Shown: piece after piece, positions 1-20,637 of the stretch | How positions within the stretch are numbered: the first letter of the stretch is position 1 | Layout of the letters: each line of letters starts with the position of its first letter | Origin: Minisyncoccota bacterium | GTDB lineage: Bacteria; Patescibacteriota; Minisyncoccia; Phycocordibacterales; SBAW01 | Assembly: GCA_035510635.1 (NCBI GenBank) | Contig: DATKGU010000006.1 | Location: 1-61,403, forward strand | DNA: 61,403 bases | Reading direction: 5' to 3' | The notes under the pieces: model-generated | What the model was told of the DNA's origin: nothing | The model's database searches: none | The model's input: the letters and a program-made list of their open reading frames with translations, nothing else | Position numbers and translations under genes: made by a program

Positions 1-3000
1 GCCAGCGCCAGGCGACCAAATGCCTGTGTTGTATCCGCTCGTTGCACCAAAGTTAAGAGAAGGAAGGCTTTGAGCACCTGCGGGGAGTGATAGGTTTCCA
101 GTAGTAGTAGCTCCACCCGAGATAGTGAGCCCGCCTGCTTGGGTGCCGTTGCCGATGGTGGAGGAGGCGGTGAGGATGATGCCGAGCGTAGTGGTTGGAG
201 TGAGATAGCCGTTTACTATGTTCCAATTATTGCCAAATGTATCAAAAGCTGAAGGCGAAAGATTTTGCCAGGTGCCCGCGAAGTTGCTTGAGGCGTTGGT
301 GAAATTGTTGATGCCGCTGAACGTGTTGGCATCGGTGAGGAGTGTGGATGATGCGGCGGTGATGGTGTGTGAATCTCCTAAGTTAAACAGCGTACCGTTG
401 ATAGTGATAGATGAGTTTTGAAGCGCACTGTTTGGGAGGTTGAGTGAGGATGATGCAATGCCATACAAGAGGCCGTTGGTGCCCGCTCCAACAAAAGCGT
501 TGAGCACGGAGGCCACCTGCAGGTTGGTGGAGCTGGCCGTGCCCTGCACATCGAGCTTGGCTTGCGGATTGGCGGTACCGATGCCGATGTTGCCGGTTGA
601 GAGCGTCGAACCCGTGCCGTTTACAGTGGTCCCATAGATAAGGTTGCCGATGTCGAGCTGGTTGTTGGCCGTGGCGCTGGGCAGGCTAATGTCGTAGCCC
701 AACGAAATATTGTTGGAGCCCGAAGTAAGATTGGAGTGCGAGCCAAAAGCGTAGCCGCCAAGGAGCACGTTGTCGGCGCCAGTGGTGATATTGTTGCCGT
801 TGTTGTATCCGACAATTACATTGTATGCCGCGTTGACATTGCTCGTGTTGCCCGCGCCCTGCCCCACCTGCACCGAGTGCGTGGTGGACGAGGCGTAGAG
901 CACGGTGTTGCCGTCAATTTGATACCCGCCCGTGGTGCCCGAGGTGTTGATAAAGCCGGTTGCCGAAATTGCAGCAGCGCCTAGTGTGCCGGTGATTGTC
1001 GGGCTCGCTGAGAAGACTGCTACTCCACCCGTGCCTGTCTCATCCGTGAGCGCTGTTGAGAGGTTGGCTGAGGTGAAGGAGCCGAGCGAAGCGGCGTTGC
1101 CGACCGAGGTGACCACACCGGTGAGGTTAGCGTTGGTGGTGACCGTCGCTGCATTGCCGGAGATACTCATTGCTATAGCCGATGAGGTTGCTTGAGAGAA
1201 CGGTATACCCGTTGAGCCTGTCATTACGAGGCCGTTGTTCCCCATACCCCAGGTAGTGGTCGTGCCAAAAGCGCTCGTCAATGTAAGGTCGCCTGTAAGT
1301 GCTCCACCCCCTTGAAGGGGATAGGTAGTGTTTACGTTCCTCGTTGGATTAAGAGGTGTGTAGCCGAAGATAGAGGATGAGGCAGAGGTTTGAAACACTC
1401 CATTAGAACCTACATATAGATTGCCAGCGGTCATACCACTGTTTGTGGTAGTGCCAAACGCCGTACTCAAAGTAGTACCCGTTAGCAAGAGAGGATAGGT
1501 TGGAGTAGAAAGTGCCGCTTGTTTATTGTTGAAAGTGTCAAACGCGGTAGAACCGAGACACCCCGCAACTCCCGATGAGGCTGTGGTGCAGCCTATAGAA
1601 CCTGTGGTTGTAATCGTTCCTCCCGTGAGGGGTGCTGAGGCAGTGATAGAAGTAACTCCATTATTGATTGAAGATGTGGCAACCCACGCTGGGATTCCTC
1701 CGCTCATAGAAAGAACGTAGCCACCTGTTCCTGCGGCAATCGCGCCAAAAGTATTCGTCCCACTAAAGTATGGAAGTCCTCCCGTGAGCCCTGTATAGAG
1801 AGAAGAAGTGGCTACCGCAAGAGTACCTGAAGTTGTAAACCCTCCCCCCGTCATAGAGTAGTTTGTGTTTACTTGAGTAACCGTTCCCGTACCAGCAGCA
1901 GTGCATCCTTGAGCGTTGCCATTAACATCTATACCGAGTGTGTAGTTACCAGCAGAGCATTTAGTCGGGGCAGAGGCTAGCGCTGTAGCGGTGCCAGCGT
2001 TCCCCGTAATACTGGCGTTCATTGAAGTGGTGGAGACAGCGTAAGTAAGCCCACCGTTACCTGCTATGAGACCTCCGAGTGTACCTATTTTAATAGGATT
2101 GTTGAAGTAGTCTGTACCAGAGAAGGTATTAAAGTCGCCCAAGAGAGAGGAGCTGGCGGCAGTTATTGTAATGTTCGCAGACCCGTCAAAAGCAACACTG
2201 TTAATTGTTTTGGTTGCCGCTAACTTTGTTGCTGTACCTGCGTTACCCGAAATGGAACCTGTAATTAAGTTATTGAAAATATCCGTCCCCGACCATGTGT
2301 TTGTGTCACCTAGGAGGGTAGAGGAGGCAGCTCCTGAGAGAGAAGTTAAATACCCTGCATTGTTCGTCCATTGAGAGATGTTCGGTGAGAGGAAAGAGGA
2401 AGTAGTGAGGTTGAGAGAGGAGGTTGCTACGGTTGAGATGACGTTGGAGGAGATGGAGAGTGGATAGGTGGCCGAGGTAATGCGATCGCTGTAGGCGGTG
2501 TTCCAGTTGGCGGCAGAGGCGATATAGCTGTCGCCTATCGCGGTGCCGTTCCAGATACCGGAGGTAATAGTGCCTACGCTTGCAAGGTTGGAGAGCGCGG
2601 TGATTGAGTTGACCGAAGTCGTTGCGGCGAGGTCGGTGATAAAGCGAGGATCGAAGAGACCGTTGAAGGTGCCGGTGTACACACCGTTGGTGACCGTGGC
2701 CGCATTGCCGCTGACGCTACCCGTGATGGTGTTGTTGAACGTATCGTTGCCACTAAACGTGTTGTTGTCGGCAAGGAGCGTCGTCGAGGCAACCGTGATG
2801 GAACCGCCGAGGGAGACTGCAGTGCCGTTAATCGTGAGCGATGAGTTTTGGAGTGCCGCGTTGGGGAGATTGAGCGAGGAGGAAGCAATTTGATACAGCG
2901 TGCCGGAGTTTGCACCGATAAATCCTGCGAGTGTTCCCACTTGAACGCCGCCGCTGAAATTAAGTTTCGTGCTCGTGGCATTAAGCGGAAACGGATAGGC

Positions 3001-6000
3001 GAAGGTGTCAGCGCCTGCCGGTGAGTAATCAACACCGGCTACTGCAGCCACAAGTGCGCCGCCGGTGGTGGTTTTAAGTAAGTTGCCCGAGGCGATGTTT
3101 GATATAGCAAAAGAGGTAGTCGTGGCATTGGTAGTAGTTGCATTCACACCGGTGAAGTTTTGGAAGGTTGATGATGCAGTGGCGAGGAGGTTAGGTACCG
3201 TGAGCGTGCCGGTGAAGGTCGGCGATGTTGCAAAGCTTGTCGTGTTACCTACCGAGGTGACCACACCGGTCAAGTTGGCGTTGGTGGTGACGGTCGCTGC
3301 ATTGCCGCTGACGCTACCCGTGATGAGATTGCTAAAGGTGTTGTTGCCCGAGAACGTGTTGCTGTCACCGAGGAGTGTGGTGGAAGCAATAACAATGTTA
3401 GCGGTACCGTTGAAGGAGACACCGTTGATGGTGCGTGGGTTTTGGAGAGCGGTAGCAGTGTTGGCATTACCACCGATGTTAAGGGTGGAGGTGGAGGCGC
3501 CGATGAATACTCCACTGTTGTTGGTGTACACAAGGAGGTTGTTGCCAAGACCAGTGTTAGTAGTGGTGCCAAACGCGGTTGAGATGGTGAGGTTGCCGGT
3601 GCTTGCGGATGTTTGCAATGGATACGTCGCCGCAAGCGACACAACGCCGGTGTTGGTAATAACGCCGGTGCTGGGAACATAGCCGATGCCTGCACCACCA
3701 GAGAGAGATGTCGAAGATATTTTATTATTAAACGTGTTGTAGTCGGTTGAGGAAAGATAGCCGTTTGATGCGAGACCCGCTTGAGAGATGGCAAACGCAC
3801 CCGTGGAGCTGTTGTATGCGAGCGGCGCAACTGCCGAGAGCGATGAGGTGCCAAAGAGGCTTAAGCTCGAGGTGGACACCGTGAGCGCGCCGTTGACATT
3901 AACCAAGCCGGCACCAAGGAGCGACGTAAAGTAGCTGCCGGCACCGAGGCCAAAGGTTGAGGCAAAAAGCGATGTCGATGTTGCATTGGTGGTGGTGGCA
4001 TTGAGTGCCGTGAAGTTTTGGAGTGTTGTCGAACCACTGACCATGAGGGAGGCTCCCAATGTGGTGGACCCGAGCGCGGCAAACCCGCCGCGGCTAAAGA
4101 TGCCGCCCGCGCCGACATCAAGACCGCCGCCTGCAAAAATATTTTGCCCGACATTGAGCGAGTCGGACACATCGACGCTGTTGGCCGCAAGGGATCCGAT
4201 GTTGGCGGCCGGTGTTGAGAGGCCGTTGATATCAACAACGTCGAGACCGTGGCTATCGTCGGCAACATACGCATACTTGCCTGCTACAAAAATACTGTTG
4301 GGCGTGCCGGCCGATGCAATACTGCCCACCAAGCTAGGAGCCGTTGGCGTGCTCATGTCGAGCACCAATGTATTGCCGCTGTGGTCAGCCACATAGAGGT
4401 TGGTGCCCGCTGCCTGCACACCATTGTAATAGGCGCTGTGGCTCGGCGGATATTGGCCAACCAATGCAGGGCTTGCGGGATTGGACACACTGAGGGTATA
4501 AAGGCCGGTCACCTGGTCGGCAACATACAGATATTTGCCGCTCACATACATGGCTGCCGGACCCCCCACCACGGAGCTGTTGTTGTATGTGCCAACGATA
4601 GCGGGAGCTGCCGGGTTGGATACATCAACAACATATATAGCCGGGAGTTGATCTCCTACGTACAGATATTTACCGGAGATGGCCAACGCAATCGGAAGCG
4701 AGTTGGTGCCACCCGGAGGCAAGAGGCTCCCCGCGAGCGTGGGCGCGGCTGGGTTGCTTACATCGATGATGCGCACCGCGTGGTTGTTGAAGTCGTTTAT
4801 ATAAAGATATCTGCCCGAAAGAGCGAGCGATTGCGTCGTGCCGCTTAATGCATAAGTGCCAACCGCATTTGGCGCGGCAGGATTGCTCACATCAAATATC
4901 ACGAGGCCGAAGTTTTGGTCGGCAACGTAGGCGTACTTGCCTGCCACCACCACGGCATCTGCTGCGGGGCTCGCGATGTAGGAACTGTTGGAGCCAACTG
5001 TAGTTGGCACGGCCGGATTAGTAATGTCGATGACGCGCAAGCCGCCTTGATAATCGGCCACATAGGCGTAGTGACCCGACACGTACGTGCCATATGCATG
5101 AGCCGAGCCAATCTCAGAGACGGTGGCGGCAATACTTGGGTTGCCGGCGGCGACATGCGTGATGTCGCCGCCGGCTATTGCCAAGTGCGAAGCCGGTGTG
5201 GAGGAGCCAAGCCCGACATTGCCGCCCGCTGTGGCAACCAATGTATTGCCGCCCACGTTAAGCGCGCCGGTTGCCGTGAGGTTGCCGGCAAAAAATCCGT
5301 TGCCGTTTACGCCGAGCTTGGCCGCAGGCGATGTGCTGCCGAGGCCAAAGTTCCCCGCCGAGGTAAACACCGAGTTTAACGCGCCCGTACTATTATATAT
5401 ATCGATGACATTGGCGGTCTGACCCGATGCCGCCACAAGTGCGAGGGTGGTACTCGCGGTGTTGCTCGAGAGCACGGTGAGTTTTGCATATGGCGTGGTG
5501 GTGGCGCCCACGGCAACCATGTCGGTAGTGGTCGCAAGCGATACGGTGCCGATATTGTTGGTGGTCCAGCCGCCTCCTGTCGAGGCGTTGGCTATAGCAA
5601 GCGCGCCGCATACCACGTTTCCTTGCGAGTCGGTTTGAAGCGCCTGATTGCCGGTGCACGATGGCGAGCCGCTCAAGGTAAGCGTTGAGGAGAAGCGCCC
5701 GGTGCCGGTGACATCAAGCGTTTTACCGGGAGTTGAATTGCCAATACCTACAGTACCGTTTTGGAGCACCGTGAGTGCGTTGCTGCCGACCGCAAGGCCG
5801 CCCGCAAAGGTGGAGGTTGCGGTGCTTGAGGTGGCGTTGAGGTAATTAAAGAAACCGGTTGCCGCAGAAATTTGAGAGCTCGAGGCGTTGGCAAAACTTG
5901 CAAACGCGGTAAAGGCGCTCGCGGCATTAAACGTGTTGGTGCCGCTAAACACATTGTTGGTGGTCGTGCCAAAGGCAGTTGAGATGGTGAGGTTGCCGGT

Positions 6001-9000
6001 AGAGGCGCTCGTTTGCAGAGGATAGGTTGCCGTAAGTGAAATTACGCCTGTGTTGGTGATGATGCCGGTTGAAGGCACGTAGTTGATACCGTTGCCACCC
6101 GAGAGCGAGCTGGAAGATAGTTTATTATTAAACGTTGCATAATCGGCCAAAGAGAGTTTGCCGTTTGAAGTGAGTGATGCAAACGGCAGGTTAAAGGTTT
6201 GCGTGTTGCCGCTTGCGGTAATGGTAAAGTCGGTGCCGTTGGTGGAGGTTGCAAGCAATTGCGTGCCGCCGTTTTGTGTCTGCCCTGCCGGACCGATCGA
6301 CGTGATGCCGATGCCGTTTGTGGTGAGTGTGGTGCCGTCAAACGTGAGGCCTGAGCCAACAGTGAGCGGCCTCACGGAGCCGTTTGCATTGGTGGCAAGT
6401 ATGCCGCTCACGATGTTGCTGATAGCAAAGCTCGTGGTTGTTGCATTGGTAGTCGTAGCATTTACGCCCGTAAAGTTTTGCAATGTGGTGGAAGCGGTTG
6501 CGAGGATAGTGCTTGCCGTAAAACCGCCGTTAAATGCAATTTGTGATGAAGTAGCGTTGGCAATAAACGGATATGCAAACGTATCAAAGTTGGATGCCGA
6601 GAGCCCCTGCCACGTGCCGGCAAAGTTGGATGAGGCGTTGGTAAAGTTGTTGACACCACTAAAGGTATTGGTGTCGGTAAGGAGCGTTGTGGATGACATC
6701 GGAATTATTTTGTTGTCACCGAGATTAAACGTGGTGCCGTTTACCGTGATGCTTGAGTTCACTAGTTTGTTGTTGGCAATACTGCCCGCGAGCATCGTGT
6801 TGGTCACCGTGCCGGTATCGGTTGTATAGACGCCATTGGTGACCGTGCCTGCGTTGCCCGTAATGCTGGCATTGAGTGATGAGGTGGAAACCTGATATAG
6901 TTTCCCGCTATTTCCTGCAATGAGACCCGAATAATTATTTATCGAAGCAAGATTTGGCAGTGTGGTGATGCCGGCAATCGACGAGCTTGCCGAGAGGCGG
7001 TTGTCAAACAAATTGCCAAAGGTGGTGGTGTAGACACCGTTGGTCACCGTGCCTGCGTTGCCAGAGACACTGCCCGTGATGAGATTGGTAAAGATGTTGT
7101 TACCGGAGAAGGTGTTTGAGTCAGTGAGCACGGTGGAACTTGCAGCCGTAATCGTTTTATTGTCACCTAAGTTAAACGTGGTGCCGTTGATGGTGAGAGA
7201 TGAGTTTTGGAGAGCGGCGTTTGGCAAGTTGAGCGAAGACGATGCAATGCCATACAACGTGCCATTGTTGCCTCCGATAAATCCTGTGAGCGCCCCAACC
7301 TGCACGCCGCCGCTTAAATTAAGTTTTGTGCTGGTCGCATTGTTGGGGAACGGATAACCAATTTCGTCCGAAATATTTAATTTTGCATTGAGCGCATTTT
7401 GCAAATCGGTTTGGCTTGCAAGCGTGCCACTGATGTTGCCCCAGGTGGCGCTGTTTATACCCAAGCTCGAGGTTGATATAAGGTTATACCCTCCCGTTCC
7501 ATTGCCGAGCAAAAGTTGGCCGTAGCTCGGCGCGGTGCTGGTGCCGGTGCCGCCGCTTCCGATACCGAGCGCTTGCGAGAGTGTGAGCGCGCCGTTGTTT
7601 GCAAAGCTCGAGGTTGCGGTTGCGCCAAACGATGCGCTCTGATACGCCGCGAGGTTGGTGCTGGTGGCGTTGGTAAATACGCCGGTCGACGGCGTGTTGG
7701 CGCCTATCGGCGAGTTGTCGATCGAACCGCCGTTGATAGTGAGATTGTGGGCAACATACGCATTGGCAATAGGAGTGCCGTTCCACACGCCGGCAATAAT
7801 GGTACCAAACGACGATGAGCCGCTAATGGTGAGTGTGCTTGCCGAGACGGTTGGCGCGGTAAGCGTAGTGCCGTCAAATGTAAAGTTGTTGCTCGCCGTA
7901 ACCGCGTCGGCCGTGGCGTTGGTGTAATACACCTGATTGGCAACGTACGAGCTCGGTACATCGGTGAGCCCGAGGAAGGTGCTCGAGCCGCCACCGCCGC
8001 CGGTGCCGCAGTCGGAGCCCGTGCCCGAGATAATACCGTTGGCACCAACATGGAGACACTGTACCGAGCCGGTAACGCTCGCGAGTTTAAGAGAGCCGTT
8101 GACCGTAATGCCGCCATTTACCTGGAGCGCACCGGTTGTCGTTGCGCCGCCGGCAATCGTGAGGCCGCCTGTTTGTGTGCCATTGCCAATCGTTGATGAT
8201 GCCTGTGAGACAAAGCCCGCACCAAAAGTTTGGAGTGATGAGTAGAGGTTGGCTGTGGTAGTACCAAAATTAGTCGAGAGTGTCACCGCTCCGGTTGAGC
8301 CCGAAACTTGCAGAGGATATGTTGCCGCGAGCGAGGTCACTGCGCTGGTGAGGTAACCACCGGGAGCTTGATAGTCGGTGCCGGCAACTGCAGGTACAAC
8401 CGAACCGTTTGCATTTGTTTTAAGCAATGTCGAAGTGATGTTTGAAATCGCGAGGTTGGTGGTGGTGGCTTGTGCAAGCGTGGTGTTGCCGCTCACCTGC
8501 AGTGTGCCGGTTGCGGTAATATTTGCCGTAGTAAGATTGTTGGAGATATATGCACTGCCGTTGACCGAGAGTGCTTGCGTAGGATTTGTGGTATCAACAC
8601 CAAAATTGCCGTTGGTAATGTAGGTGCCGCCGTTGCCGTTAGGGCTGATTGAGATGCCGCCGTTAGTTAAGCTCGGTACGCTGATAGTGCTGCCGCTGAT
8701 TTGGATGTTGCCTGCAAGCGTACCGCTTGGGAAGAGCACCGCCGAGCTGTCGCTGGTGTTAAAACTTTTGCCACCAGTTAGAGTTACACCCGATTTAATC
8801 AAAAGTGCGCCGGTGCCCGATGGATTGATCTCGATATTTGCGGTGCCGGTTGTCTGCATGACCAAGTTTTCGTTGACATCAGAGGAGACAACGACATCGT
8901 TTGATGCATCGGTATGGAGCACCTCTTGGCCGTTAACATAGAGCGAGCCGGGGCCAACATAAATGTCTTTCCACGTGTTGGCGGCAGAGCCAAGCGAGTA

Positions 9001-11715
9001 CGTGTTGGCAACAGAGGGAATAATGCTGCCACTAATACCGATGTTGCCGGCAAATGTTGAAGTGCCGGTGCCGGTCACCGAGAGATTTTGGAGCGAGGTA
9101 GCGCCGTTAAAGGTGTTGGCATTGCTAAAGATATTTGCAGTGTAGGTTTTGGGGATCGTGCTTGATGCGTCGATAAATGCGTTTACAAGCGCGTTGTTGT
9201 AATAAAGATTGGTGATGCCTTGTTTCAAACCATCGGTAGTGGTTGCATACCAGTCCGAAAGATTTAATTTTGCATTGAGCGCATTTTGCAAATCGGTTTG
9301 GTTGCTGAGTGTGCCAACAATATTTCCCCACGAAGGATTGCCGGAAGCTGCAATGCCGAGGCTCGAAGTTGAAACAAGACTGTATCCTCCCGCTGCGTTG
9401 CCGAGCAAAAGTTGGCCATATACCGGCGCGGTGCTTGTGCCAGTGCCACCGTTTACAACACCTATGGTGCCAAGACCAATGACTCCCGTGCCGCCGTTGT
9501 ATGTAATGCCGTTAGCTCCGCTCAAACTACTCGAGGATATTTTATTTTCAAACGTTGCGTAGTCGGCAGGTGTTAAAAGGCCGCGCGCACCAAGCGAAGC
9601 ACTGGGGAGATTGTATGTAATAAGATTGCCGCTCGCGGTGATAGAAAAATCGTTGCCGAGAGTTGATGACGCAAGTGTTACGCTCGGGCCGCTTTGCAAT
9701 TGGCTTGCCGGACCAATCGAGGTAAATGTGCCACCACCGCCACCGATGATGCCCAAGCTCGATGTTGCAAGCAAGTTGTAGCCGCCGGTGCTATTACCAA
9801 CCAAGAGCTGGCCGTAGCTCGGCGCGGTGCCGGTGCCGGTGCCGCCGTTTGCAATGCCTATGGTACCGAGGCCAATGGCACCGGTTGCCCCGTTGTAGGT
9901 AACACCATTAGTGCCGCTCAAGCTGCTTGAAGATATTTTATTGTTAAAGGTAGTGAAGTCGGTTGAGGAAAGATAGCCGTTTGATGCGAGACCCGATTGT
10001 AAAATGCTAAATGCGCCGGTAGTTGAGTTGTATGCAAGAGGCGCAGTCGCCGAGAGTGAGCTCGGAGCCAAGAGGCCGAGTGATGTTGTCGAGACGGTGA
10101 GGACGCCTGCGTTGTTGGAGAGGCCGGTGCCAAGAAGCGATGTAAAGTAGTTGCCGGCTCCAAGACCAAACGTGGAGGCATAGAGCACACTGGTGGTTGC
10201 ATTAGTGGCAGTAACTTGTTGCAGCGTCGTTCCGCCTGTTGCCAAAAGATTAACCAACGTGGTCTGCCCTGCATCATTTACGGCAAAGAGCGTCGTCGAA
10301 GCGCTGTTGGCAATCTCAAATGCGTTTTCGTTGCCGAGGCCTACGCCCCACACGGTGAGTTTTGCATACGGCGTGGTGGTACCAATGCCAACCTGCTCAT
10401 TATTGGTGGTGAGGTGCACCACGGTGCCGGTGTCGGTCCAACCGCCCGCAGCCGATGCAGTAAAGCTCTGATAGCTCGAGCAATCGTTGGAGTACTCAAG
10501 CTGGCCGGCTATCTCGGCAAAACAACCGTTTGAGGAACCGTCGTTGGAGGCAATGCTGATAACGCCGCCGTTGCCGAGTGAGAGTGTTTGGGTCGGGTTT
10601 GCGGTGCCGACACCGAGGCGATTGTTAACGGCGTCCCATACAAACTCGGTCGAGCTCGCATCAAACGCACCGCCGGTATTAAACTGGATGGCGCCCGTAC
10701 TGCCCGCGGCATTGCCGCCGCTCGTAATGCACACGCCCGCAACGCTAAAACATCCCGAAGCTAAGTCGATGCCGTTGAGACCCGAGATACTTCCGCCCGA
10801 TATGTTTGCACCCGTTATGCTGCCACCGGTGATGACAACGTTCGAAAGACGGTCGATGATTTGCGAGAGCGCGATGTTGTTGGTGTTACCGCCGCTCGAG
10901 TACACCGGCCCCGGCGCGCTGTTGATGTTGCTAAAAATAACCTGGCGCAAATTGTTGGAGAGCTCGTTGAGCTGCGTAGTGAGAGCATCTTGAGTGACGT
11001 AGCTGCTCAAGTTTGCAATCGGAGCGGGTGCCGACTGCGGCAAAGTTTGAGTAGATGCAGGCGCTTGTTGTTGAGGAAAAGTCTGGTTGAGGCTTCCGAG
11101 CCGACCCGAGGACTTTTCAGAGACAACTGGTGCCGGAGTCGAAGTTGTCACAGCAGAAACAGGTGTCGGCGAGACAGGTTGCGCCGGAGACACTGCAACA
11201 GTTTGCGATGAGTGATTGCCAAACAAAAACGCCAACACGCTTGCAAAAAAATTATTTGAGGAGGGAACCGCCAAATTCGGCGTTTGAGGAGGAGCCGCAA
11301 AAAACGGTGACTGCACCGACGCAAGCACTGCGGCACCTTGTGACGAACCGCCAGTCTCAAGCGGACTCTCAAAAGGTGTCGCAATCCCTCCTGCGTACAC
11401 AAGCGACGCAAACAAAAATGTTCCACCAAGCACAAACGCAACACTCTTACCGGCAGCCGAATGCAAAAAACTTGCCGTGCGCAACCCTTTAGTTTTTCTA
11501 TATACCTCTTGCTCTTTTTGGCGCTCCTCGGCCAATTCTTGTGCACGGGCCATACGCGCCGAAGCGCGGGATTTTTCAAAAGCGGCAATAGATGACTCTT
11601 TTACAAACCAGGCATTATTGATTCGCTCACCCTCAAGTTTGCCTTCGCGGCAGAGTTTGCCAACATAGTCCGGAGCGCACGCAAGGCGCTTTGCCGCCTT
11701 GCGTGCAGAAAGCAT
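1..11715 (-). CDS. Giant membrane-anchored surface protein; the C-terminus lies beyond the left window edge (at least 3,905 codons). Layout: HTH_17-like N-terminus, one TM helix, P/S/T/Q-rich linker, tail-fibre-like Gly/Thr/Ser/Asn repeat modules, LVIVD-repeat beta-propeller, then more repeats.
   Basis: Hand translation of the minus strand from ATG 11715 (AGGAG just upstream) gives MLSARKAAKRLACAPDYVGKLCREGKLEGERINNAWFVKESSIAAFEKSR. A TM segment SVAFVLGGTFLFASLVYAGGIA follows. I then read more than 1,400 codons down to about 7490 without a stop, and also about 5160-3660. The LVIVD block (GKYAYVADDSHGLDVVDI, about 4228-4285) is in the same phase, with the first codon base at positions divisible by 3. 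The track lists no minus-strand ORF in that phase anywhere in 1-11715. That is only possible if the ORF opened at 11715 never meets a stop before position 1. An alternative in-frame GTG start exists at 11757. Confidence 0.85.
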   Translation of the reverse strand, partial: MLSARKAAKRLACAPDYVGKLCREGKLEGERINNAWFVKESSIAAFEKSRASARMARAQELAEERQKEQEVYRKTKGLRTASFLHSAAGKSVAFVLGGTFLFASLVYAGGIATPFESPLETGGSSQGAAVLASVQSPFFAAPPQTPNLAVPSSNNFFASVLAFLFGNHSSQTVAVSPAQPVSPTPVSAVTTSTPAPVVSEKSSGRLGSLNQTFPQQQAPASTQTLPQSAPAPIANLSSYVTQDALTTQLNELSNNLRQVIFSNINSAPGPVYSSGGNTNNIALSQIIDRLSNVVITGGSITGANISGGSISGLNGIDLASGCFSVAGVCITSGGNAAGSTGAIQFNTGGAFDASSTEFVWDAVNNRLGVGTANPTQTLSLGNGGVISIASNDGSSNGCFAEIAGQLEYSNDCSSYQSFTASAAGGWTDTGTVVHLTTNNEQVGIGTTTPYAKLTVWGVGLGNENAFEIANSASTTLFAVNDAGQTTLVNLLATGGTTLQQVTATNATTSVLYASTFGLGAGNYFTSLLGTGLSNNAGVLTVSTTSLGLLAPSSLSATAPLAYNSTTGAFSILQSGLASNGYLSSTDFTTFNNKISSSSLSGTNGVTYNGATGAIGLGTIGIANGGTGTGTAPSYGQLLVGNSTGGYNLLATSSLGIIGGGGGTFTSIGPASQLQSGPSVTLASSTLGNDFSITASGNLITYNLPSASLGARGLLTPADYATFENKISSSSLSGANGITYNGGTGVIGLGTIGVVNGGTGTSTAPVYGQLLLGNAAGGYSLVSTSSLGIAASGNPSWGNIVGTLSNQTDLQNALNAKLNLSDWYATTTDGLKQGITNLYYNNALVNAFIDASSTIPKTYTANIFSNANTFNGATSLQNLSVTGTGTSTFAGNIGISGSIIPSVANTYSLGSAANTWKDIYVGPGSLYVNGQEVLHTDASNDVVVSSDVNENLVMQTTGTANIEINPSGTGALLIKSGVTLTGGKSFNTSDSSAVLFPSGTLAGNIQISGSTISVPSLTNGGISISPNGNGGTYITNGNFGVDTTNPTQALSVNGSAYISNNLTTANITATGTLQVSGNTTLAQATTTNLAISNITSTLLKTNANGSVVPAVAGTDYQAPGGYLTSAVTSLAATYPLQVSGSTGAVTLSTNFGTTTANLYSSLQTFGAGFVSQASSTIGNGTQTGGLTIAGGATTTGALQVNGGITVNGSLKLASVTGSVQCLHVGANGIISGTGSDCGTGGGGGSSTFLGLTDVPSSYVANQVYYTNATADAVTASNNFTFDGTTLTAPTVSASTLTISGSSSFGTIIAGVWNGTPIANAYVAHNLTINGGSIDNSPIGANTPSTGVFTNATSTNLAAYQSASFGATATSSFANNGALTLSQALGIGSGGTGTSTAPSYGQLLLGNGTGGYNLISTSSLGINSATWGNISGTLASQTDLQNALNAKLNISDEIGYPFPNNATSTKLNLSGGVQVGALTGFIGGNNGTLYGIASSSLNLPNAALQNSSLTINGTTFNLGDNKTITAASSTVLTDSNTFSGNNIFTNLITGSVSGNAGTVTNGVYTTTFGNLFDNRLSASSSIAGITTLPNLASINNYSGLIAGNSGKLYQVSTSSLNASITGNAGTVTNGVYTTDTGTVTNTMLAGSIANNKLVNSSITVNGTTFNLGDNKIIPMSSTTLLTDTNTFSGVNNFTNASSNFAGTWQGLSASNFDTFAYPFIANATSSQIAFNGGFTASTILATASTTLQNFTGVNATTTNATTTSFAISNIVSGILATNANGSVRPLTVGSGLTFDGTTLTTNGIGITSIGPAGQTQNGGTQLLATSTNGTDFTITASGNTQTFNLPFASLTSNGKLSLADYATFNNKLSSSSLSGGNGINYVPSTGIITNTGVISLTATYPLQTSASTGNLTISTAFGTTTNNVFSGTNTFNAASAFTAFASFANASSSQISAATGFFNYLNATSSTATSTFAGGLAVGSNALTVLQNGTVGIGNSTPGKTLDVTGTGRFSSTLTLSGSPSCTGNQALQTDSQGNVVCGALAIANASTGGGWTTNNIGTVSLATTTDMVAVGATTTPYAKLTVLSSNTASTTLALVAASGQTANVIDIYNSTGALNSVFTSAGNFGLGSTSPAAKLGVNGNGFFAGNLTATGALNVGGNTLVATAGGNVGLGSSTPASHLAIAGGDITHVAAGNPSIAATVSEIGSAHAYGTYVSGHYAYVADYQGGLRVIDITNPAVPTTVGSNSSYIASPAADAVVVAGKYAYVADQNFGLVIFDVSNPAAPNAVGTYALSGTTQSLALSGRYLYINDFNNHAVRIIDVSNPAAPTLAGSLLPPGGTNSLPIALAISGKYLYVGDQLPAIYVVDVSNPAAPAIVGTYNNSSVVGGPAAMYVSGKYLYVADQVTGLYTLSVSNPASPALVGQYPPSHSAYYNGVQAAGTNLYVADHSGNTLVLDMSTPTAPSLVGSIASAGTPNSIFVAGKYAYVADDSHGLDVVDINGLSTPAANIGSLAANSVDVSDSLNVGQNIFAGGGLDVGAGGIFSRGGFAALGSTTLGASLMVSGSTTLQNFTALNATTTNATSTSLFASTFGLGAGSYFTSLLGAGLVNVNGALTVSTSSLSLFGTSSLSAVAPLAYNSSTGAFAISQAGLASNGYLSSTDYNTFNNKISSTSLSGGAGIGYVPSTGVITNTGVVSLAATYPLQTSASTGNLTISTAFGTTTNTGLGNNLLVYTNNSGVFIGASTSTLNIGGNANTATALQNPRTINGVSFNGTANIVIASTTLLGDSNTFSGNNTFSNLITGSVSGNAATVTTNANLTGVVTSVGNTTSFATSPTFTGTLTVPNLLATASSTFQNFTGVNATTTNATTTSFAISNIASGNLLKTTTGGALVAAVAGVDYSPAGADTFAYPFPLNATSTKLNFSGGVQVGTLAGFIGANSGTLYQIASSSLNLPNAALQNSSLTINGTAVSLGGSITVASTTLLADNNTFSGNDTFNNTITGSVSGNAATVTNGVYTGTFNGLFDPRFITDLAATTSVNSITALSNLASVGTITSGIWNGTAIGDSYIASAANWNTAYSDRITSATYPLSISSNVISTVATSSLNLTTSSFLSPNISQWTNNAGYLTSLSGAASSTLLGDTNTWSGTDIFNNLITGSISGNAGTATKLAATKTINSVAFDGSANITITAASSSLLGDFNTFSGTDYFNNPIKIGTLGGLIAGNGGLTYAVSTTSMNASITGNAGTATALASAPTKCSAGNYTLGIDVNGNAQGCTAAGTGTVTQVNTNYSMTGGGFTTSGTLAVATSSLYTGLTGGLPYFSGTNTFGAIAAGTGGYVLSMSGGIPAWVATSSINNGVTSITASAPLTGGTITTTGSIGCTTASSGVAGCLGSTAFDTFNNKQAALSTPTYPLLLTGTTLSTAFGTTTNSGMTAGNLYVGSNGVFQTSASSSIFGYTPLNPTRNVNTTYPLQGGGALTGDLTLTSAFGTTTTWGMGNNGLVMTGSTGIPFSQATSSAIAMSISGNAATVTTNANLTGVVTSVGNAASLGSFTSANLSTALTDETGTGGVAVFSASPTITGTLGAAAISATGFINTSGTTGGYQIDGNTVLYASSTTHSVQVGQGAGNTSNVNAAYNVIVGYNNGNNITTGADNVLLGGYAFGSHSNLTSGSNNISLGYDISLPSATANNQLDIGNLIYGTTVNGTGSTLSTGNIGIGTANPQAKLDVQGTASSTNLQVASVLNAFVGAGTNGLLYGIASSSLNLPNSALQNSSITINGTLFNLGDSHTITAASSTLLTDANTFSGINNFTNASSNFAGTWQNLSPSAFDTFGNNWNIVNGYLTPTTTLGIILTASSTIGNGTQAGGLTISGGATTTGNLSLPAGAQSLPSLNFGATSGYNTGIWSPGAG

Positions 11716-12190
11716 ATGCTCCTCTTGTATTCCTGTTATTTTTTTAGGCGAAATCACTTTTATTTATACGGAGAGTTCGGCTTTACTAGTATTTATTTTA
11801 ATACGAACTTCACTCTATGTATGCAAAAAACAAAACAAAAACTGTGGATAGCGTGAATAAAAAAATTAAATATAAAATTTATACAAAAGGTTTATTGCAT
11901 TGGTATACAAGCCTATAATGCTTACACAAAAAAATAAAAAATACGCAGATCAAATCAACTTGTCACCGTTTTTATTAAATAATTTTGTTTAAATTTATCT
12001 AAAAATTCGCAATAAATTGTTCAAACGAGAAACGTTACAAATAAAAGAGTAATCGCCAAGGCAATACGATATATCGCCTATTCTTAACGATATCTCGGCT
12101 AACAGAGGTACTGTTAAAACCTAAAAAGTCATCTTGTTTACATAAAAATTTTGCCCTAAATTTTTCCGGTAAAAACAAGTAACCGAGAAC

Positions 12191-12225
12191 AATAAAAATA
12201 CCCGTTTCTAATTTCTAGAACGGGC
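12191..12225 (-). terminator. Rho-independent terminator downstream of the 255-aa HTH/TM gene
   Basis: The minus strand reads CCCGTTCTAGAAATTAGAAACGGG followed by TATTTTTATTGTT. The stem is CCCGTT/AACGGG, extendable with one bulge. Confidence 0.55.
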
Positions 12226-12269
12226 TTGTAAAGCAAAATTTGACGGAAAAATAAAATGACGTCGAATGA

Positions 12270-13037
12270 TTATTTAATGCTGTATCCAACGCTTGCGCTC
12301 TGTCCCCCATCAACCGTAAGCGTAAAAAATAGATGCGCGGACAACAAACCGGCGAGTGCAAAAACAATTGCGCCGAGCACCAGCACCTCTCCGAGGCGCA
12401 CCCAAACAGGCATAGTACTCTTTTGTTTAGTTGGCACGAGCTTCATGATCGGAGCAATAGCCACAGGCTGATGCATTACCGGTCTAATACCTTCAAGCTT
12501 CACCGGTATCGGCTGCGGCTCAATTCGTTTGATAGCAACCGTATGTTCCTCTGCGCGTTCTTCTTTTTTATATTCTTCCTTACGTCCCTCTTTTATTTTT
12601 TGTACGTGCGGTATGAGCGGTCCTTCGTCGGCAATGTAACGCAAACCAGTTGCCTCGCGCGCTTCGCGTGCCGTGCGGTAAATAGGAACATCAAAACTTT
12701 TTTCTAATTCTATTTTTGTCTCTGGTTCTTCTTCTTGCTCGTCAACAACTATCGGCATCGCAATTTCTTCGGGTTCAGGCGTCTCTTCGACTACTGGGGC
12801 CTCTTCAACTACCACCACGTCTTCAACAATCTGGCGAGGGTGTGCCGGCGCTTCTTTACCGAGATAGGTTGCAAGAGATTCGGCATCCACATACCACGCA
12901 CGGCCAATTTTGCGGCCCTCCACTTTTTTAGCACGTATAAGCTGGCCGATATAGTCAGCATGATAATTATGGTCCTTCCCTGCACGACGAGTCGATATAT
13001 ACCGCTTGCCCGATATTTCTAGCTCATCCATATGCAC
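12270..13037 (-). CDS. Hypothetical protein: HTH_17-like N-terminus, acidic linker, C-terminal TM anchor
   Basis: 255-aa ORF. YISTRRAGKDHNYHADYIGQLIRAKKVEGRKIGRAWYVDAESLATYL fits the excisionase/MerR-type HTH pattern and aligns with the N-terminus of the giant protein. The middle is E/P/V-rich. A hydrophobic segment VWVRLGEVLVLGAIVFALAGLLSAHLFF lies 17 aa from the C-terminus. Confidence 0.7.
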   Translation of the reverse strand: MHMDELEISGKRYISTRRAGKDHNYHADYIGQLIRAKKVEGRKIGRAWYVDAESLATYLGKEAPAHPRQIVEDVVVVEEAPVVEETPEPEEIAMPIVVDEQEEEPETKIELEKSFDVPIYRTAREAREATGLRYIADEGPLIPHVQKIKEGRKEEYKKEERAEEHTVAIKRIEPQPIPVKLEGIRPVMHQPVAIAPIMKLVPTKQKSTMPVWVRLGEVLVLGAIVFALAGLLSAHLFFTLTVDGGQSASVGYSIK

Positions 13038-13046
13038 CTAGTATAC

Positions 13047-14441
13047 CTACGCGAGAATTTTTTGTATAGCCGAGCGCAGTGCGCCGGGATTTGCCGAGCC
13101 TTTACTCTCCTTCATACCGTGCCCTATTAAAAACTGCATAGCGGCCTCCTTGCCTGCTTTGTAGTCGGCAACAACCGTAGGGTTTGCATCGATTACTTTT
13201 TGTGCAACGACTGCCATGGAACTCTCATCGTTTTGCTGTATGAGCCCTTTTTCTTTGGCAATTTGTTCTGGATCTTCTCCGCGTAATACGTAAGGGAGTA
13301 TATCTTTTGTTGCACGAGAAGAAAGCTTACCTTCCCCGTTCATACGAACAAGAGTTGCAAACAAAGAGGCGATATTACTTTCAGTATAGAGCTTTTCTCC
13401 CGCTATATCATTGGCAATATAATTTGCGGCGAGTAAAACTAATTTTGGTTCTTTTAAAAACTTTGCCGCTGCATCAAAAAAATCTCCAACTAGTGTGTCC
13501 CGGACAAACATCTCGGCGTCCTCAGATTTGAGACCTAAGGCTATATACCGTGCACGCTTTTCCCACGGAAGTTTCCCCGAGATTTCTTGCTTTAAATGTT
13601 CTGCCGAGAACTCAGATATCTCCGAGAGCAAAAGTTTTGGCAAATCAGGGTCGGGAAAATAGCGATAATCTGCTGACCCTTCCTTTTTACGCTGACTAAA
13701 CGTGACTTGTTTTGTCTCGTCCCATCCGCGCGTTTCTTGTACTATCGTGCCACCGTCGCCCAACACCTTGGCTTGCCGAGCAAGCTCATAGGCGATAGCG
13801 CGCTCAACCGAGCGGAAGGAGTTGAGATTTTTAACTTCTACTTTGGTGCCGAGTTTTTCACTCTTACTAACCGAGATGTTAGCCTCCACGCGCATCTCGC
13901 CCTTTTCCATGTTGGCCTCCCCTGCCCCGAGATAGCGTAGGAGCAATTGGAGCTCGCGTGCAAAACGCCCCGCTGTTTCTGCATCGTGTATAACCGGCTC
14001 GGTAACCAGCTCCATGAGCGGCACGCCGCCGCGGTTGTAATCAACCAAACTTTTGTCTCCCTCGTGTTGCGAGCGCGCGGTATCCTCCTCAAGATGTATG
14101 CGCGTTATCTCAACGCCCTCGAGCGTGCCGCCCTCAACAAGTGGCCGCTTGTATTGGCTAATTTGATAGCCCTTGGGAATGTCCGGATAAAAATAACTCT
14201 TCCTATCAAACTCGGTGTAGTCGGCAAGCGTGCTGCCGAGCGCAGTGCCCACCAGGAGCACTTTGTGCACCGCCTCGCGGTTGATAACCGGGAGCGTGCC
14301 GGGGTGCGCCATGCACACCGGACAAATATTTTTGTTGGGTTCGCGCTCGTCCGCATCGTTCGCGCACGCGCAAAACATTTTTGTATGCGTCTTAAGCTCG
14401 GCATGAATCTCAAGACCTATGGTGGCTCGGTAATCGCTCAT
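13047..14441 (-). CDS. gatB: Asp-tRNA(Asn)/Glu-tRNA(Gln) amidotransferase subunit B
   Basis: 464 aa. IGLEIHAELKTHTKMFCAC and NICPVCMAHPGTLPVIN are classical GatB N-terminal motifs. A GatB/YqeY-type C-terminal tail is present. Confidence 0.97.
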   Translation of the reverse strand: MSDYRATIGLEIHAELKTHTKMFCACANDADEREPNKNICPVCMAHPGTLPVINREAVHKVLLVGTALGSTLADYTEFDRKSYFYPDIPKGYQISQYKRPLVEGGTLEGVEITRIHLEEDTARSQHEGDKSLVDYNRGGVPLMELVTEPVIHDAETAGRFARELQLLLRYLGAGEANMEKGEMRVEANISVSKSEKLGTKVEVKNLNSFRSVERAIAYELARQAKVLGDGGTIVQETRGWDETKQVTFSQRKKEGSADYRYFPDPDLPKLLLSEISEFSAEHLKQEISGKLPWEKRARYIALGLKSEDAEMFVRDTLVGDFFDAAAKFLKEPKLVLLAANYIANDIAGEKLYTESNIASLFATLVRMNGEGKLSSRATKDILPYVLRGEDPEQIAKEKGLIQQNDESSMAVVAQKVIDANPTVVADYKAGKEAAMQFLIGHGMKESKGSANPGALRSAIQKILA

Positions 14442-14445
14442 ATGC

Positions 14446-15414
14446 TTATTGTAAATGCTTCAGTAACACCTGCCGCAGGTTATCTACCAACGTATCGTCC
14501 AAGACCGAGACAAACACCGCCTCTTTGCCCTCGGCCGACATTTTAGCTATCAGGGCCGATATTTCCTTTATATCTCGGGTATCAGATTTTGTAAAAACGA
14601 TTAATTCGGGCTTCTCTACAAGGGCACCGCTCTCAAAACTTTCGAGCTCGGCTCTCACTGCTTTATAATCAGCCATGGGGTCATCTGCCTCAAGCGAGAT
14701 ACAGTGCACTATAAGGCTTGTGCGCGCGATATGCCGAAGGAACTTAAATCCGAGACCCTTCCCTTCCGAGGCGCCCTCGATAAGACCGGGGATATCCGCC
14801 AATACAAAACCGTATAATGCGCCGAGATTTGGGTCAAGCGTGGTAAACGCGTAGGAGGCAACCTTGCCCGCCGCACCTGTCACCGCATTTAAAAGTGATG
14901 TTTTGCCGGCGTTTGGCAAGCCCACCAAGCCTGCGTCGGCAATGAGCCTGAGCTCTATCTTGAGTTCGGCCTCCTCGCCCTTGCCGCCTGGTGTAAATTC
15001 CTCAGGTGTACGATTGGTCGACGACTTAAACACGGTGTTGCCTGCGCCGCCGCGCCCGCCGTGCAAAATCATTTTTGTATCTCCTTCGTGCAAAAGCTCG
15101 TATATCTCGCCCGTGTTGGTGTTGCGCACCACAGAGCCCACGGGCAAGTTGATGGTAAGGTCGTTTCCTCGCTTGCCGTGCATGTTTTGATTTTCGCCCG
15201 GGGCACCCGCGCCGGCCTCAAACTTTTTTTCTCCTCGATAGCGCGCAAGCAGGTTGATGTCGCGCACGGCGGTAACATAAACGTCGCCGCCATCGCCGCC
15301 ATTGCCCCCCGAAGGGCCGGAATATTCTTTGCCTTTTTCGTGCAGCCAGCGCACAACGCCGTCGCCGCCGTTGCCCGCGCGTGCATTAACTGTTAGTTCA
15401 TCAACGAGAGCCAC
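14446..15414 (-). CDS. obg: GTPase Obg/CgtA
   Basis: Obg-fold glycine-rich motifs ARAGNGGDGVVRW and GGNGGDGGDV; G1 GLPNAGKTSLLN; G3 DIPGLIEGA. The longest ORF (to 15561) would run through the upstream gene. GTG at 15414 gives (M)ALVDELTVNARAG, the usual Obg N-terminus, 4 nt after the upstream stop. Confidence 0.92.
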   Translation of the reverse strand: MALVDELTVNARAGNGGDGVVRWLHEKGKEYSGPSGGNGGDGGDVYVTAVRDINLLARYRGEKKFEAGAGAPGENQNMHGKRGNDLTINLPVGSVVRNTNTGEIYELLHEGDTKMILHGGRGGAGNTVFKSSTNRTPEEFTPGGKGEEAELKIELRLIADAGLVGLPNAGKTSLLNAVTGAAGKVASYAFTTLDPNLGALYGFVLADIPGLIEGASEGKGLGFKFLRHIARTSLIVHCISLEADDPMADYKAVRAELESFESGALVEKPELIVFTKSDTRDIKEISALIAKMSAEGKEAVFVSVLDDTLVDNLRQVLLKHLQ

Positions 15415-15418
15415 AGTA

Positions 15419-15760
15419 TTATTCAGACTTAAACGCCAGGTGCACCAGCCACCCGACCAGTGCAAGAATAAACGAACCTTCAAGCGCCGGGATAAAACCA
15501 TACACGTGGAAGCCTGCAATGAAGGTCGCCAAAAACCAAAAGAGGAACGCGTTGAGTACAAAGGAAAAGAGCCCGAGGGTGAGGATGTTAATAGGCAGCG
15601 TCAGGAGATGCAACACGGGTTTTACGGTAAGGCCGAGTATGCCCCAGATAACAGCCACCACGAGCGCCGTATAAAAACTCTCCACCAAAATCCCCGGCAC
15701 ATACTGCGAAACGAGGAGCAGAGTTATCGCGATAGTAATAACGTAGACAAGGGCCTTCAT
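15419..15760 (-). CDS. Small membrane protein, phage-holin-family-4 / DUF360 type
   Basis: 113 aa with four hydrophobic segments. LTLPINILTLGLFSFVLNAFLFW and GFHVYGF resemble the DUF360 pattern. Confidence 0.65.
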   Translation of the reverse strand: MKALVYVITIAITLLLVSQYVPGILVESFYTALVVAVIWGILGLTVKPVLHLLTLPINILTLGLFSFVLNAFLFWFLATFIAGFHVYGFIPALEGSFILALVGWLVHLAFKSE

Positions 15761-15777
15761 CCCTCTATCCTAATCGA

Positions 15778-16530: not shown

Positions 16531-16534
16531 ATCT

Positions 16535-16993
16535 CTATTGTATCTCAGCTGCTTCGATTTTGCCTCGCACGCGTGCAAAAAACTCTTTGTCTTTAGGATG
16601 CGTCAAGAGTTCAAGGGCTTCATCTGGTGTGACCCAGCGCACATCGGTCGTCTCGACATTGTCGGGCTTTGGCGAGGCATGAGTGCTAAACAAAAAGAGT
16701 GTGCGCGGGCGCAACCCCAACTCCTTTTGCTCACCCACGCCGTCTTTTGCTATCGAGTAACGTTCGTAGGTACCAAGCTCGGAGAGCAGTGTGAGCTCGG
16801 CAATACCCGCCTCTTCGGCAATCTCGCGCCGCGCCGCCGCGAGCGCACTCTCGCCCGGCTCGATCCCGCCTTTGGGGAAAGACCACGAGTTGTTGTGCTG
16901 ATGCACGAGCAACACCTTACCCTCGGAGTTTAAAATAATTCCTCCTGCAGATGCGCGCGGCAGCATATTGCTACAGTGTACCCCAAGAGTCAA
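16535..16993 (-). CDS. NUDIX hydrolase
   Basis: Nudix box GGIEPGESALAAARREIAEEAGI. Confidence 0.9.
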   Translation of the reverse strand: MTLGVHCSNMLPRASAGGIILNSEGKVLLVHQHNNSWSFPKGGIEPGESALAAARREIAEEAGIAELTLLSELGTYERYSIAKDGVGEQKELGLRPRTLFLFSTHASPKPDNVETTDVRWVTPDEALELLTHPKDKEFFARVRGKIEAAEIQ

Positions 16994-17017
16994 AATAACG
17001 TTATATAATCGGGGTGT

Positions 17018-18058: not shown

Positions 18059-18072
18059 AAACGCAGGCGGTG

Positions 18073-20574: not shown

Positions 20575-20583
20575 ACAATACCA

Positions 20584-20624: not shown

Positions 20625-20637
20625 TATCGAGAGGATT

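Follow-up and report, generated by a model that had tools for sequence, protein, structure and literature searches.

A predicted membrane-anchored giant protein with a winged-helix head and tail-fiber-like modules at a conserved locus of Patescibacteria

Introduction

The left end of contig DATKGU010000006.1 (Minisyncoccota bacterium, assembly GCA_035510635.1) raises the question of what is encoded in its first 11,715 nucleotides (nt), a region for which the supplied track of open reading frames (ORFs) lists only short entries and for which a first-pass annotation had proposed a single unlisted giant gene. We analyzed the whole stretch of 61,403 nt, which we refer to as the window. A frame that is open on the minus strand from an ATG at position 11715 to base 1 is a real, conserved gene fragment. 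We consider it fairly probable (roughly 0.62) that its product, hereafter the giant, is a membrane-anchored, tail-fiber-like, probably trimeric surface fiber or adhesin of Patescibacteria.

The Patescibacteria, or candidate phyla radiation (CPR), account for a large part of bacterial diversity and apparently live attached to other cells; beyond type IV pili, how they recognize and hold their hosts is little understood. Giant surface proteins as such are known in the CPR. The ten longest proteins of Vampirococcus lugosii, 1,392 to 4,163 amino acids (aa) in length, are giant membrane proteins thought to mediate host attachment (PMC8080830), and several surface proteins of the saccharibacterium Southlakia epibionticum that are predicted adhesins are essential (PMC10633639, PMC11665869). 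What is new here is an anchor built from a winged helix, a long helix and a transmembrane (TM) segment, with heads that can be duplicated or split, together with the size of an unnamed family, its strict synteny and a sequence box associated with its upstream regions.

An uninterrupted frame at the left edge of the window

Translation from ATG 11715 to base 1 yields 3,905 codons with 0 stops, as the first-pass annotation had claimed from partial hand translation. Each of the other five frames of 1-11715 contains 93 to 317 stops, and their longest open run is 228 codons. The 3' end of the gene (1..11715, minus strand) is missing because the frame leaves the window at its left edge, and the gene is absent from the ORF track because the lister drops ORFs that are truncated at an end of the source. 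Of the 50 ORFs with 60 aa or more in this region, none shares the phase of the giant, in agreement with what had been read from the track; the short ORFs cited as examples (3065..3682 and 6158..6829, both on the plus strand) do exist, whereas their number had been underestimated at about 35. A Shine-Dalgarno sequence, GAGGAG (11719..11724, minus strand), can be read 3 nt 5' of the ATG, and the 554 nt upstream of the ATG are noncoding, with 29% GC and frequent stops in the frame of the giant. The earlier concern about collapsed repeats was assessed through repeat identities. Internal protein repeats are at most 75% identical, and the DNA repeats are mostly 62 to 85% identical, with the closest pair reaching 91% over just 64 nt. 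The repeats are thus too diverged for assembly collapse to be likely over most of the gene.

The gene sits in a locus with the conserved order SecA, DsbD, holin, Obg, GatB, a small paralog with a helix-turn-helix (HTH) and a TM segment, and the giant gene; MurB, a type IV pilin-like protein and a large glycan-biosynthesis cluster are also among its neighbors in the window. P0013 is the nearest relative of the giant and its positional ortholog; it bears the label "hypothetical protein, partial [Minisyncoccia bacterium]" and is 60 to 90% identical in collinear blocks. Its locus reads SecA, DsbD, holin, Obg, GatB, a 232-aa protein and then the giant, with identities to the window of 92% for SecA, 85% for Obg and 76% for GatB. 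The order GatB, HTH/TM paralog and head-family gene recurs in six other genomes (L010 and L013 to L017), and in five of the six (L013 to L017) the head-family gene at this position is a giant, one of them cut by a contig end. The four complete positional orthologs encode 4,387, 4,660, 5,279 and 5,777 aa on contigs of 56 to 651 kb, and on their 3' side lie the genes for GAPDH, RpiB, Rpe and transketolase, either adjoining or two to three genes further on. Since the window gene is a positional ortholog of these conserved giants, its full length probably falls in the same range, at 4,400 to 5,800 residues. The source lineage is the Minisyncoccia/Paceibacterota part of the Patescibacteria, in line with the original guess of an episymbiotic small-genome bacterium.

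The protein itself varies far more than its surroundings. Across the syntenic loci, SecA is 65 to 92% and GatB 60 to 76% identical to the window, and housekeeping proteins overall are 60 to 92% identical; only 8 to 24 of the 40 hundred-residue tiles of the giant align with its orthologs over at least 60 aa, at 47 to 71% identity. By tile-wise BLAST, an expansion of about 1,200 aa (aa 2566-3800; 316..4020, minus strand), made of the R1 and R2 modules described below, is absent at this place from P0013. Judging from these alignments, the gene keeps its place and swaps its modules fast.

The left end could be followed beyond the window. When metagenome contigs were scanned for exact matches to the 36 leftmost bases of the window, a single contig was recovered, L012 (3,080 bp), which is 99% identical to window positions 1-169 and 1139-2844 (blastn/blastp) and prolongs the giant frame by 990 nt past the window edge without a stop. 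The frame therefore does exit the left edge, as had been proposed, and the composite spans at least 4,235 codons; the leftward extension suggested at the time has now been made and stays open, without reaching the stop codon. Between the two matching segments, a strain-variable cassette (170..1138, minus strand) of 969 nt (323 aa) is swapped in frame for an unrelated 222 nt (74 aa) in L012, and a 7-nt deletion in L012 at window positions 2459-2465 shifts the frame. These differences are explained either by cassettes swapped at the strain level, possibly with phase-off variants, or by noise in the assembly. The L012 extension is not collinear with the continuation of P0013, and the missing C terminus therefore cannot be rebuilt from relatives.

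Genes of this kind are poorly recovered in public data. A search with the N-terminal 457 aa returned only 12 relatives, the giant itself not among them, and the source genome is not included in the GTDB representative genomes; window GatB matches in public contigs were short ones only, ending before the giant gene, and public assemblies break at or within the giant genes of the family. In L007, a Patescibacteria metagenome-assembled genome (MAG), the giant homolog is interrupted by a single in-frame TAA at 8819-8821, which leaves 2,884 and 2,268 codons in one frame. This TAA may stem from a nonsense polymorphism or from an error, or it may be read through. An alternative genetic code was ruled out as its explanation, as the codon is TAA and not TGA. 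Separately, a Kaiserbacteria MAG (L003) contains two consecutive giant frames, at 1115-14326 (4,404 codons) and 13761-21122 (more than 2,454 codons), the first of which has an HTH_17-like head.

Head, helix and membrane anchor

The N terminus of the giant is modeled with high confidence. AlphaFold2, run with an eight-sequence alignment, assigns aa 1-70 a predicted local distance difference test (pLDDT) score of 96 to 97 and builds a strand, a pair of helices and a beta-hairpin wing, after which a long helix (aa 40-87) runs into another at aa 92-110. On the combined indications of AlphaFold2, Foldseek and Pfam, aa 1-50 (11566..11715, minus strand) form a winged-helix head of the Xis/MerR/HTH_17 type. 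The best Foldseek match in the PDB is the Xis protein of mycobacteriophage Pukovnik (4j2n; target TM-score of 0.70, root mean square deviation [rmsd] of 1.4 Å), and further matches are TraN, BldC, pSK1 Par, RacA and MerR-family regulators, mostly winged helices that bind double-stranded DNA (dsDNA); the E values are only 0.03 to 0.3 because the domain is small. The topology of the model superposes on solved members of the excisionase/MerR-type winged-helix fold, and a search of PDB sequences with the head profile gave no meaningful match. HTH_17 is detected at an E value of 0.01 or lower in six of eight family heads, and relative P0018 scores 31.2 bits. The HTH-like head described in the first-pass annotation is thus confirmed by the fold model and by homologs, though its own Pfam match stays below threshold. 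Cysteines C13 and C22 are invariant in the head, and the net charge of aa 1-50 is +5 (11 K/R versus 6 D/E), which is suggestive only of DNA binding.

The long charged helix at aa 40-87 (11455..11598, minus strand; AlphaFold2) carries the residues R50, R54, R57, L61, R65 and E68, all invariant in the family alignment. The next element is a single TM helix at aa 91-112 (11380..11445, minus strand), almost exactly where one had been placed before (11383-11445). This is the sole TM-like segment, being the only 19-residue window with a Kyte-Doolittle mean of at least 1.6 in all 3,905 aa, and it coincides with the AlphaFold2 helix at aa 92-110. Its N-terminal flank is rich in K and R, from which we infer an N-in/C-out topology and hence a cytoplasmic head. 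Beyond the membrane lie the juxtamembrane motifs "LA..QSPFF" and the hydrophobic "F..LAFLFG" (11215..11340, minus strand), with S136, F138, F139 and A162 invariant; an SPFF-type motif follows the TM helix in most family giants. The translation then enters a low-complexity linker rich in P, S, T and Q (aa 168-250; 10966..11214, minus strand), the stalk of the earlier description.

A modular ectodomain with tail-fiber-like repeats and a propeller

The ectodomain consists of 14% T, 13% G, 13% S, 11% A and 10% N and is a mosaic of diverged modules of about 95 to 117 aa. Iterated hidden Markov model (HMM) searches of the protein against itself resolved three module families, R1 (about 116 aa; n = 6), R2 (about 95 aa; n = 11) and R3 (n = 5). 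The first R3 module, "GAIQFN...RLGVGT.P...L", lies at 10345..10695 (minus strand), with more copies at aa 1971-2246 and 3680-3725, and R3 is common to P0004 and P0006 to P0010. Self-BLAST of the whole protein returned the identity match only, and the repeats became visible after tiling. Tiling was equally decisive in the comparison with PHROG phage families, where 400-aa tiles gave the matches reported here and the whole protein gave one weak match.

Three tail-fiber-related stretches stand out, all on the minus strand. The first, at aa 869-941 (8893..9111), matches phrog_15695 (tail fiber; E = 3.8e-5) and phrog_1171 (tail spike; E = 7e-4). A repeat motif containing "..NTATALQNPRTINGVSFNGTANI.." at aa 2746-2799 (3319..3480) matches phrog_20242 (E = 3.3e-8), phrog_6722 (E = 6e-7) and phrog_1833 (E = 2e-6), and another containing "..SGNAGTATKLAATKTINSVAFDGSANI.." at aa 3133-3185 (2161..2319) matches phrog_454 (E = 4.7e-10), phrog_6722 (E = 3e-9) and phrog_1833 (E = 7e-8). 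The similarity to tail-fiber families is local, with matches of about 50 to 70 aa at E values of 5e-10 to 4e-5 that cover about 5% of the chain. Several segments of the repeated tail-fiber-like region noted before, whose quoted motifs are present, therefore match PHROG families. The LVIVD propeller recognized at the same time is likewise confirmed. Residues ~2190-2505 (4201..5148, minus strand) match Pfam LVIVD (PF08309) at E = 2.1e-61, with 203 bits against a cutoff of 20.2 and at least six tandem stretches, and a pattern count finds seven Y-x-Y-V-x-D blade motifs at aa 2216-2486.

Other searches of the ectodomain returned little. An NCBIfam scan of the giant found no match, and PDB sequence searches with the whole protein and with the R2-repeat profile found no meaningful match. 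Pfam families of the YadA anchor, head or stalk, which mark trimeric autotransporters, are present neither in the giant nor in its complete relatives. All 12 ectodomain cysteines lie C-terminal of the TM helix and in close pairs 7 to 18 residues apart (aa 322/329, 398/412, 1220/1236, 2020/2036, 3253/3271 and 3376/3386), a spacing compatible with local disulfide loops that fits the conservation of a DsbD-type gene in the locus; their placement also favors the N-in/C-out topology. N-x-S/T sequons are not enriched, with 99 observed against 99 ± 8 expected from composition.

A large family with short, tandem and split heads

We searched 1.84 billion representative proteins with a profile of the first ~180 residues. 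The resulting head-TM family comprises 5,576 clusters at E values of up to 1e-3, 1,112 at up to 1e-10 and 72 at up to 1e-30. Its signature, with the window protein as the reference, is a "MLSAR..A.RL.C..DY..KLCR.GKL" head, a charged helix, a TM segment within about 120 aa and the SPFF motif. Among the best 152 members, a TM segment follows the head within 120 aa in 120, and 62 carry two or more heads in tandem; lengths extend up to 5,777 aa, with 29 of the 152 at 1,000 aa or more, 18 at 2,000 aa or more and 13 at 3,000 aa or more. Over the 180-aa head-TM region, the window protein is 32 to 57% identical to P0001 to P0007. MAGs of Minisyncoccia or Paceibacterota are the source of the named members, which carry hypothetical annotations; relatives bear labels such as "hypothetical protein" or "immunoglobulin-like domain-containing protein", and an automated pipeline named P0095 a "trimeric autotransporter adhesin". 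These annotations agree with the earlier statement that the protein is uncharacterized.

The domains found in the family giants are LVIVD, a C-terminal Bact_surface_Ig-like domain, Peptidase_S74, Gp34_trimer (E = 4e-21), C1q and F5_F8_type_C_2. Peptidase_S74 occurs in the positional orthologs P0016 and P0038, and Gp34_trimer and C1q occur together in the family member P0018. At the other extreme, short members of 291 to 322 aa consist of a head, a TM helix, one R3 module and a C-terminal "C...C.TK.QLQ.LL" motif, which is also found near the C termini of P0023 and P0040.

In L010, the syntenic position is occupied by a 291-aa short form, and a giant LVIVD gene lies four genes further on in a split form, with a stand-alone gene for an 89-aa head (10884-11153), a gap of 3 nt and then the giant LVIVD protein (11157-17456). 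A classical signal peptide opens the latter, whose called length is 2,217 aa. The split form thus supports the export of the fiber part and a functional tie between head and fiber. Three genes for small secreted or membrane proteins, besides that for the 291-aa member, lie upstream of the split form.

The paralog next to the giant in the window (12270..13037, minus strand; 255 aa, probable ATG at 13031) combines an HTH head with an acidic linker and a C-terminal TM segment and has almost no ectodomain. It is 38% identical to the head of the giant (tblastn, E = 1e-7) and is retained between GatB and the head-family gene in L010 and L013 to L017. Its protein has no exact record in the public protein collection.

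A DnaA-box-like motif in a conserved upstream block

A DnaA-box-like motif, (C)TATCCACA(G), lies at 11843..11850 (minus strand), 128 nt upstream of the ATG of the giant. We take TATCCACA to fit the classical DnaA box, TTATNCACA. Nine head-family genes, spread over eight loci, have the motif in the sense orientation on their upstream side, at a distance of 28 to 200 nt, and a tenth locus carries TTATACACA in its place. In the 345 kb examined there are 16 exact copies, 9 of which fall within the target of about 2 kb (Poisson P of ~3e-18). A second conserved copy is present in the murB-secA spacer of the window (20868-20875, minus strand), of L014 and of L016. The box positions in the other loci are 1157 in L003, 114 in L007, 6528 and 10763 in L010, 5808 in L013, 9845 and 1789 in L014, 9848 in L015, 9973 and 978 in L016, and 5283 in L017. 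This placement suggests that the giant gene and secA may be coregulated, by DnaA or by the head. An origin of replication (oriC) was considered for the upstream region and ruled out; there is a single box, no dnaA is nearby, and the box occurs twice, 4 kb apart, in L010.

The motif is part of an intergenic block of about 115 nt (~11745-11860, minus strand) that is about 90% identical to L013, a conservation equal to or above that of the neighboring protein-coding genes. About 20 nt downstream of TATCCACA, the block contains a putative sigma-70-type promoter, TTGCAT-N17-TATTAA (11798..11826, minus strand), whose hexamers were read by eye and were not called by a consensus scan. The block also includes a leader element of the type "CGAACTC...AAAACAAAAG" that recurs in L015 to L017. 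An Rfam scan of the window found one tRNA-Leu only, with no match near the giant gene or the leader block. Further upstream, at 12052-12093, a 21-nt direct repeat, ATCGCC-N9-CGATAT, occurs twice in tandem, and its GAGATATCG core is also found in L013. This repeat could be an operator-like site.

A surface fiber and its alternatives

We interpret the giant as a membrane-anchored surface fiber. In the proposed arrangement, the ectodomain would be exported via Sec and retained at the membrane by the TM helix, and its shaft would assemble as a phage-tail-fiber-like, probably trimeric filament. A trimeric shaft is proposed because relatives carry the trimer-forming phage-fiber domains Gp34_trimer, C1q and Peptidase_S74. 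The long tail fiber of phage T4 has proportions of about 0.05 nm per residue. On these proportions the fiber of the giant would be about 200 nm long, comparable to the size of a cell. The LVIVD propeller and the distal modules would be presented for binding another cell or surface, and the gain, loss and swapping of modules may retune the length and specificity of the fiber between strains. The role in adhesion or host contact is inferred by analogy to the giant membrane proteins of the CPR and from domain content (PMC8080830, PMC10633639). The modeled head most likely binds DNA; candidate roles for it are DNA binding for regulation, tethering and the binding of a cytoplasmic protein. It may couple the fiber to regulation of its own promoter with the TATCCACA box, which is the least supported step.

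Several observations weigh against this reading. About 90% of the visible giant has neither a Pfam family nor a PDB sequence match, and an AlphaFold2 monomer model of aa 850-1075, based on a six-sequence alignment, reaches a pLDDT of only 44. Gp34_trimer, C1q and Peptidase_S74, seen in relatives, are absent from the visible 3,905 aa, from which the C terminus is missing. The head scores 17.2 to 22.9 bits with Pfam HTH_17 (PF12728), below the 27-bit gathering threshold, and membrane-anchored cytoplasmic HTH domains can also bind proteins, as RodZ binds MreB. The deletion and the other cassette in L012 mean that the left end of the assembly could mix strains. Finally, the assignment to adhesion draws on analogy.

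The giant may alternatively be a structural component of the envelope or coat, S-layer-like or a spacer, a glycoprotein-like fiber anchored in the membrane that forms a fibrous surface layer and sets the distance between cells without specific recognition. Such a role would suit a core syntenic gene that is present in every related genome examined, with housekeeping surroundings and a large glycan-biosynthesis cluster nearby, as well as the T/S/N/G-rich composition and the Pfam description of LVIVD repeats in bacterial and archaeal cell-surface proteins. We nevertheless regard it as unlikely: module turnover is fast even between 99%-identical strains and between close orthologs, which is more typical of tail fibers and adhesins, and orthologs carry the lectin-like or binding domains F5_F8_type_C_2, C1q and Ig-like.

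The head invites a different explanation, in which the giant is a transmembrane signaling device, with the fiber as a sensor and a tethered winged-helix transcription factor, ToxR/CadC-like or freed by proteolysis, acting on TATCCACA upstream of its own gene and of secA. This would account for the dsDNA-binding proteins among the best fold matches of the head, the separate gene for a soluble 89-aa head directly 5' of a giant, the tandem heads in 62 of 152 family members, the 8-mer conserved upstream of all the family genes examined and the conserved promoter and leader block. It is set back by the fact that TTATNCACA is the classical DnaA box, which makes DnaA the simplest binder of the motif; no protease or cleavage site was identified, and the link between head and motif is hypothetical. 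A sensor that exceeds 4,000 aa would also come at a very high cost, and the members of 291 to 322 aa keep the head and the TM helix with almost no ectodomain. Overall, we find this explanation quite doubtful. Slightly more doubtful still is a specific version in which the head would be a DNA binder tethered at the TATCCACA sites of its own gene and secA, and the fiber would additionally sense contact or tension or act as a co-translational "transertion" tether. If true, the state of a surface fiber would be coupled to transcription of both the fiber and the export motor, constituting a new class of one-component signaling in ultra-small bacteria.

An assembly artifact or a decaying pseudogene, such as a chimera of repeat-containing genes, is very improbable. 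The in-frame cassette difference and frame-shifting deletion of L012, the in-frame TAA in the L007 giant and the breaking of public assemblies at or inside such genes all point in that direction. Against them stand 3,905 uninterrupted codons, a run that neither a pseudogene nor a random chimera would preserve, DNA repeats too diverged for collapse, collinearity with P0013 over most blocks and the four complete orthologs of 4.4 to 5.8 thousand aa on 56- to 651-kb contigs. Least probable of all is a prophage or phage-derived tail-fiber gene, for which the PHROG matches, the Gp34_trimer and Peptidase_S74 domains of relatives and the Xis-like head might speak, since the neighbors are the housekeeping genes GatB, Obg, SecA, MurB and DsbD in an order conserved across genomes, no other phage structural genes are present to provide a virion-gene context, and an N-terminal TM anchor within a family-wide head-TM architecture is unlike virion fibers.

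Relation to known systems

The surface fiber that we favor shares individual features with several known systems. Like the window protein, the CPR giants of Vampirococcus and Southlakia belong to ultra-small hosts with reduced genomes, are very long and membrane associated, contain interaction-type domains and are presumed to attach cells. Compared by description only, their reported domains are of the WD40, TPR, PKD, VCBS or dockerin type, and no description combines a winged-helix head with a TM anchor and phage-fiber modules; the published work does not cover the head-TM family. Long tail fibers and tail spikes of phages (T4 gp34/gp37 and the endosialidase type, in which a C-terminal Peptidase_S74 is an intramolecular chaperone) share the "..GNAxTATKL..TINGxxFDGSANI.." repeats and a modular, cassette-like evolution, whereas the window protein is chromosomal, encoded among housekeeping genes, TM anchored, LVIVD bearing and three to five times longer than a fiber subunit.

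The head has the same fold as Pukovnik Xis (4j2n), BldC (6ama), TraN (4p0z) and RacA (5i44), with target TM-scores of 0.6 to 0.7 and rmsd values of 1.4 to 2.5 Å, and in RacA and MerR a long helix likewise follows the winged helix. Excisionase and MerR proteins are soluble DNA binders, while in the window protein the domain is fused, via its helix, with a membrane anchor and a giant ectodomain. ToxR, CadC, TcpP and RodZ have an N-terminal cytoplasmic HTH, a single TM segment and an extracytoplasmic C-terminal domain. They share the topology of the window protein, and no homology to it was detected. ToxR and CadC contain OmpR-type winged helices and small sensor domains, and RodZ contains an Xre-type HTH. 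To our knowledge, none of these four proteins carries a fiber of several thousand residues.

Among other bacteria, SiiE, MpIBP, Embp, a 7,651-aa adhesin of Mobiluncus and Giant1-5 of Apilactobacillus are likewise repetitive, extracellular and presumably adhesive proteins of several thousand residues, and each is the product of the largest gene in a small genome. Type I secretion systems export these adhesins or sortase anchors them, and their repeats are of the Ig-like, BIg or FIVAR types; the giant has an N-terminal signal anchor with an HTH head and different repeats. It is the largest gene of its neighborhood, and its fixed position and fast module change are what would be expected of a host-range determinant. 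The unnamed family of more than 1,000 clusters to which it belongs joins an intracellular domain of DNA-binding type to an extracellular fiber. ORF tracks that omit end-truncated ORFs hide such genes, and metagenome assemblies tend to break in them.

Neighboring features of the window

The glycan-biosynthesis cluster at ~21900-48500 encodes a Wzy_C/TPR protein, GT9 and GT4 glycosyltransferases, FkbM-type and C-methyltransferases and a GDP-mannose 4,6-dehydratase. The cluster might glycosylate the S/T/N-rich fiber. A TrwB/VirD4-like coupling protein of type IV secretion is encoded at 50127-51947 (minus strand) and is noteworthy because the head fold also matches TraN, a DNA-binding protein of a type IV secretion system. 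Near the right end of the window, a 549-aa ORF at 58875-60524 (minus strand) apparently joins a GTP cyclohydrolase II-like domain to one of the OMP-decarboxylase/HUMPS family.

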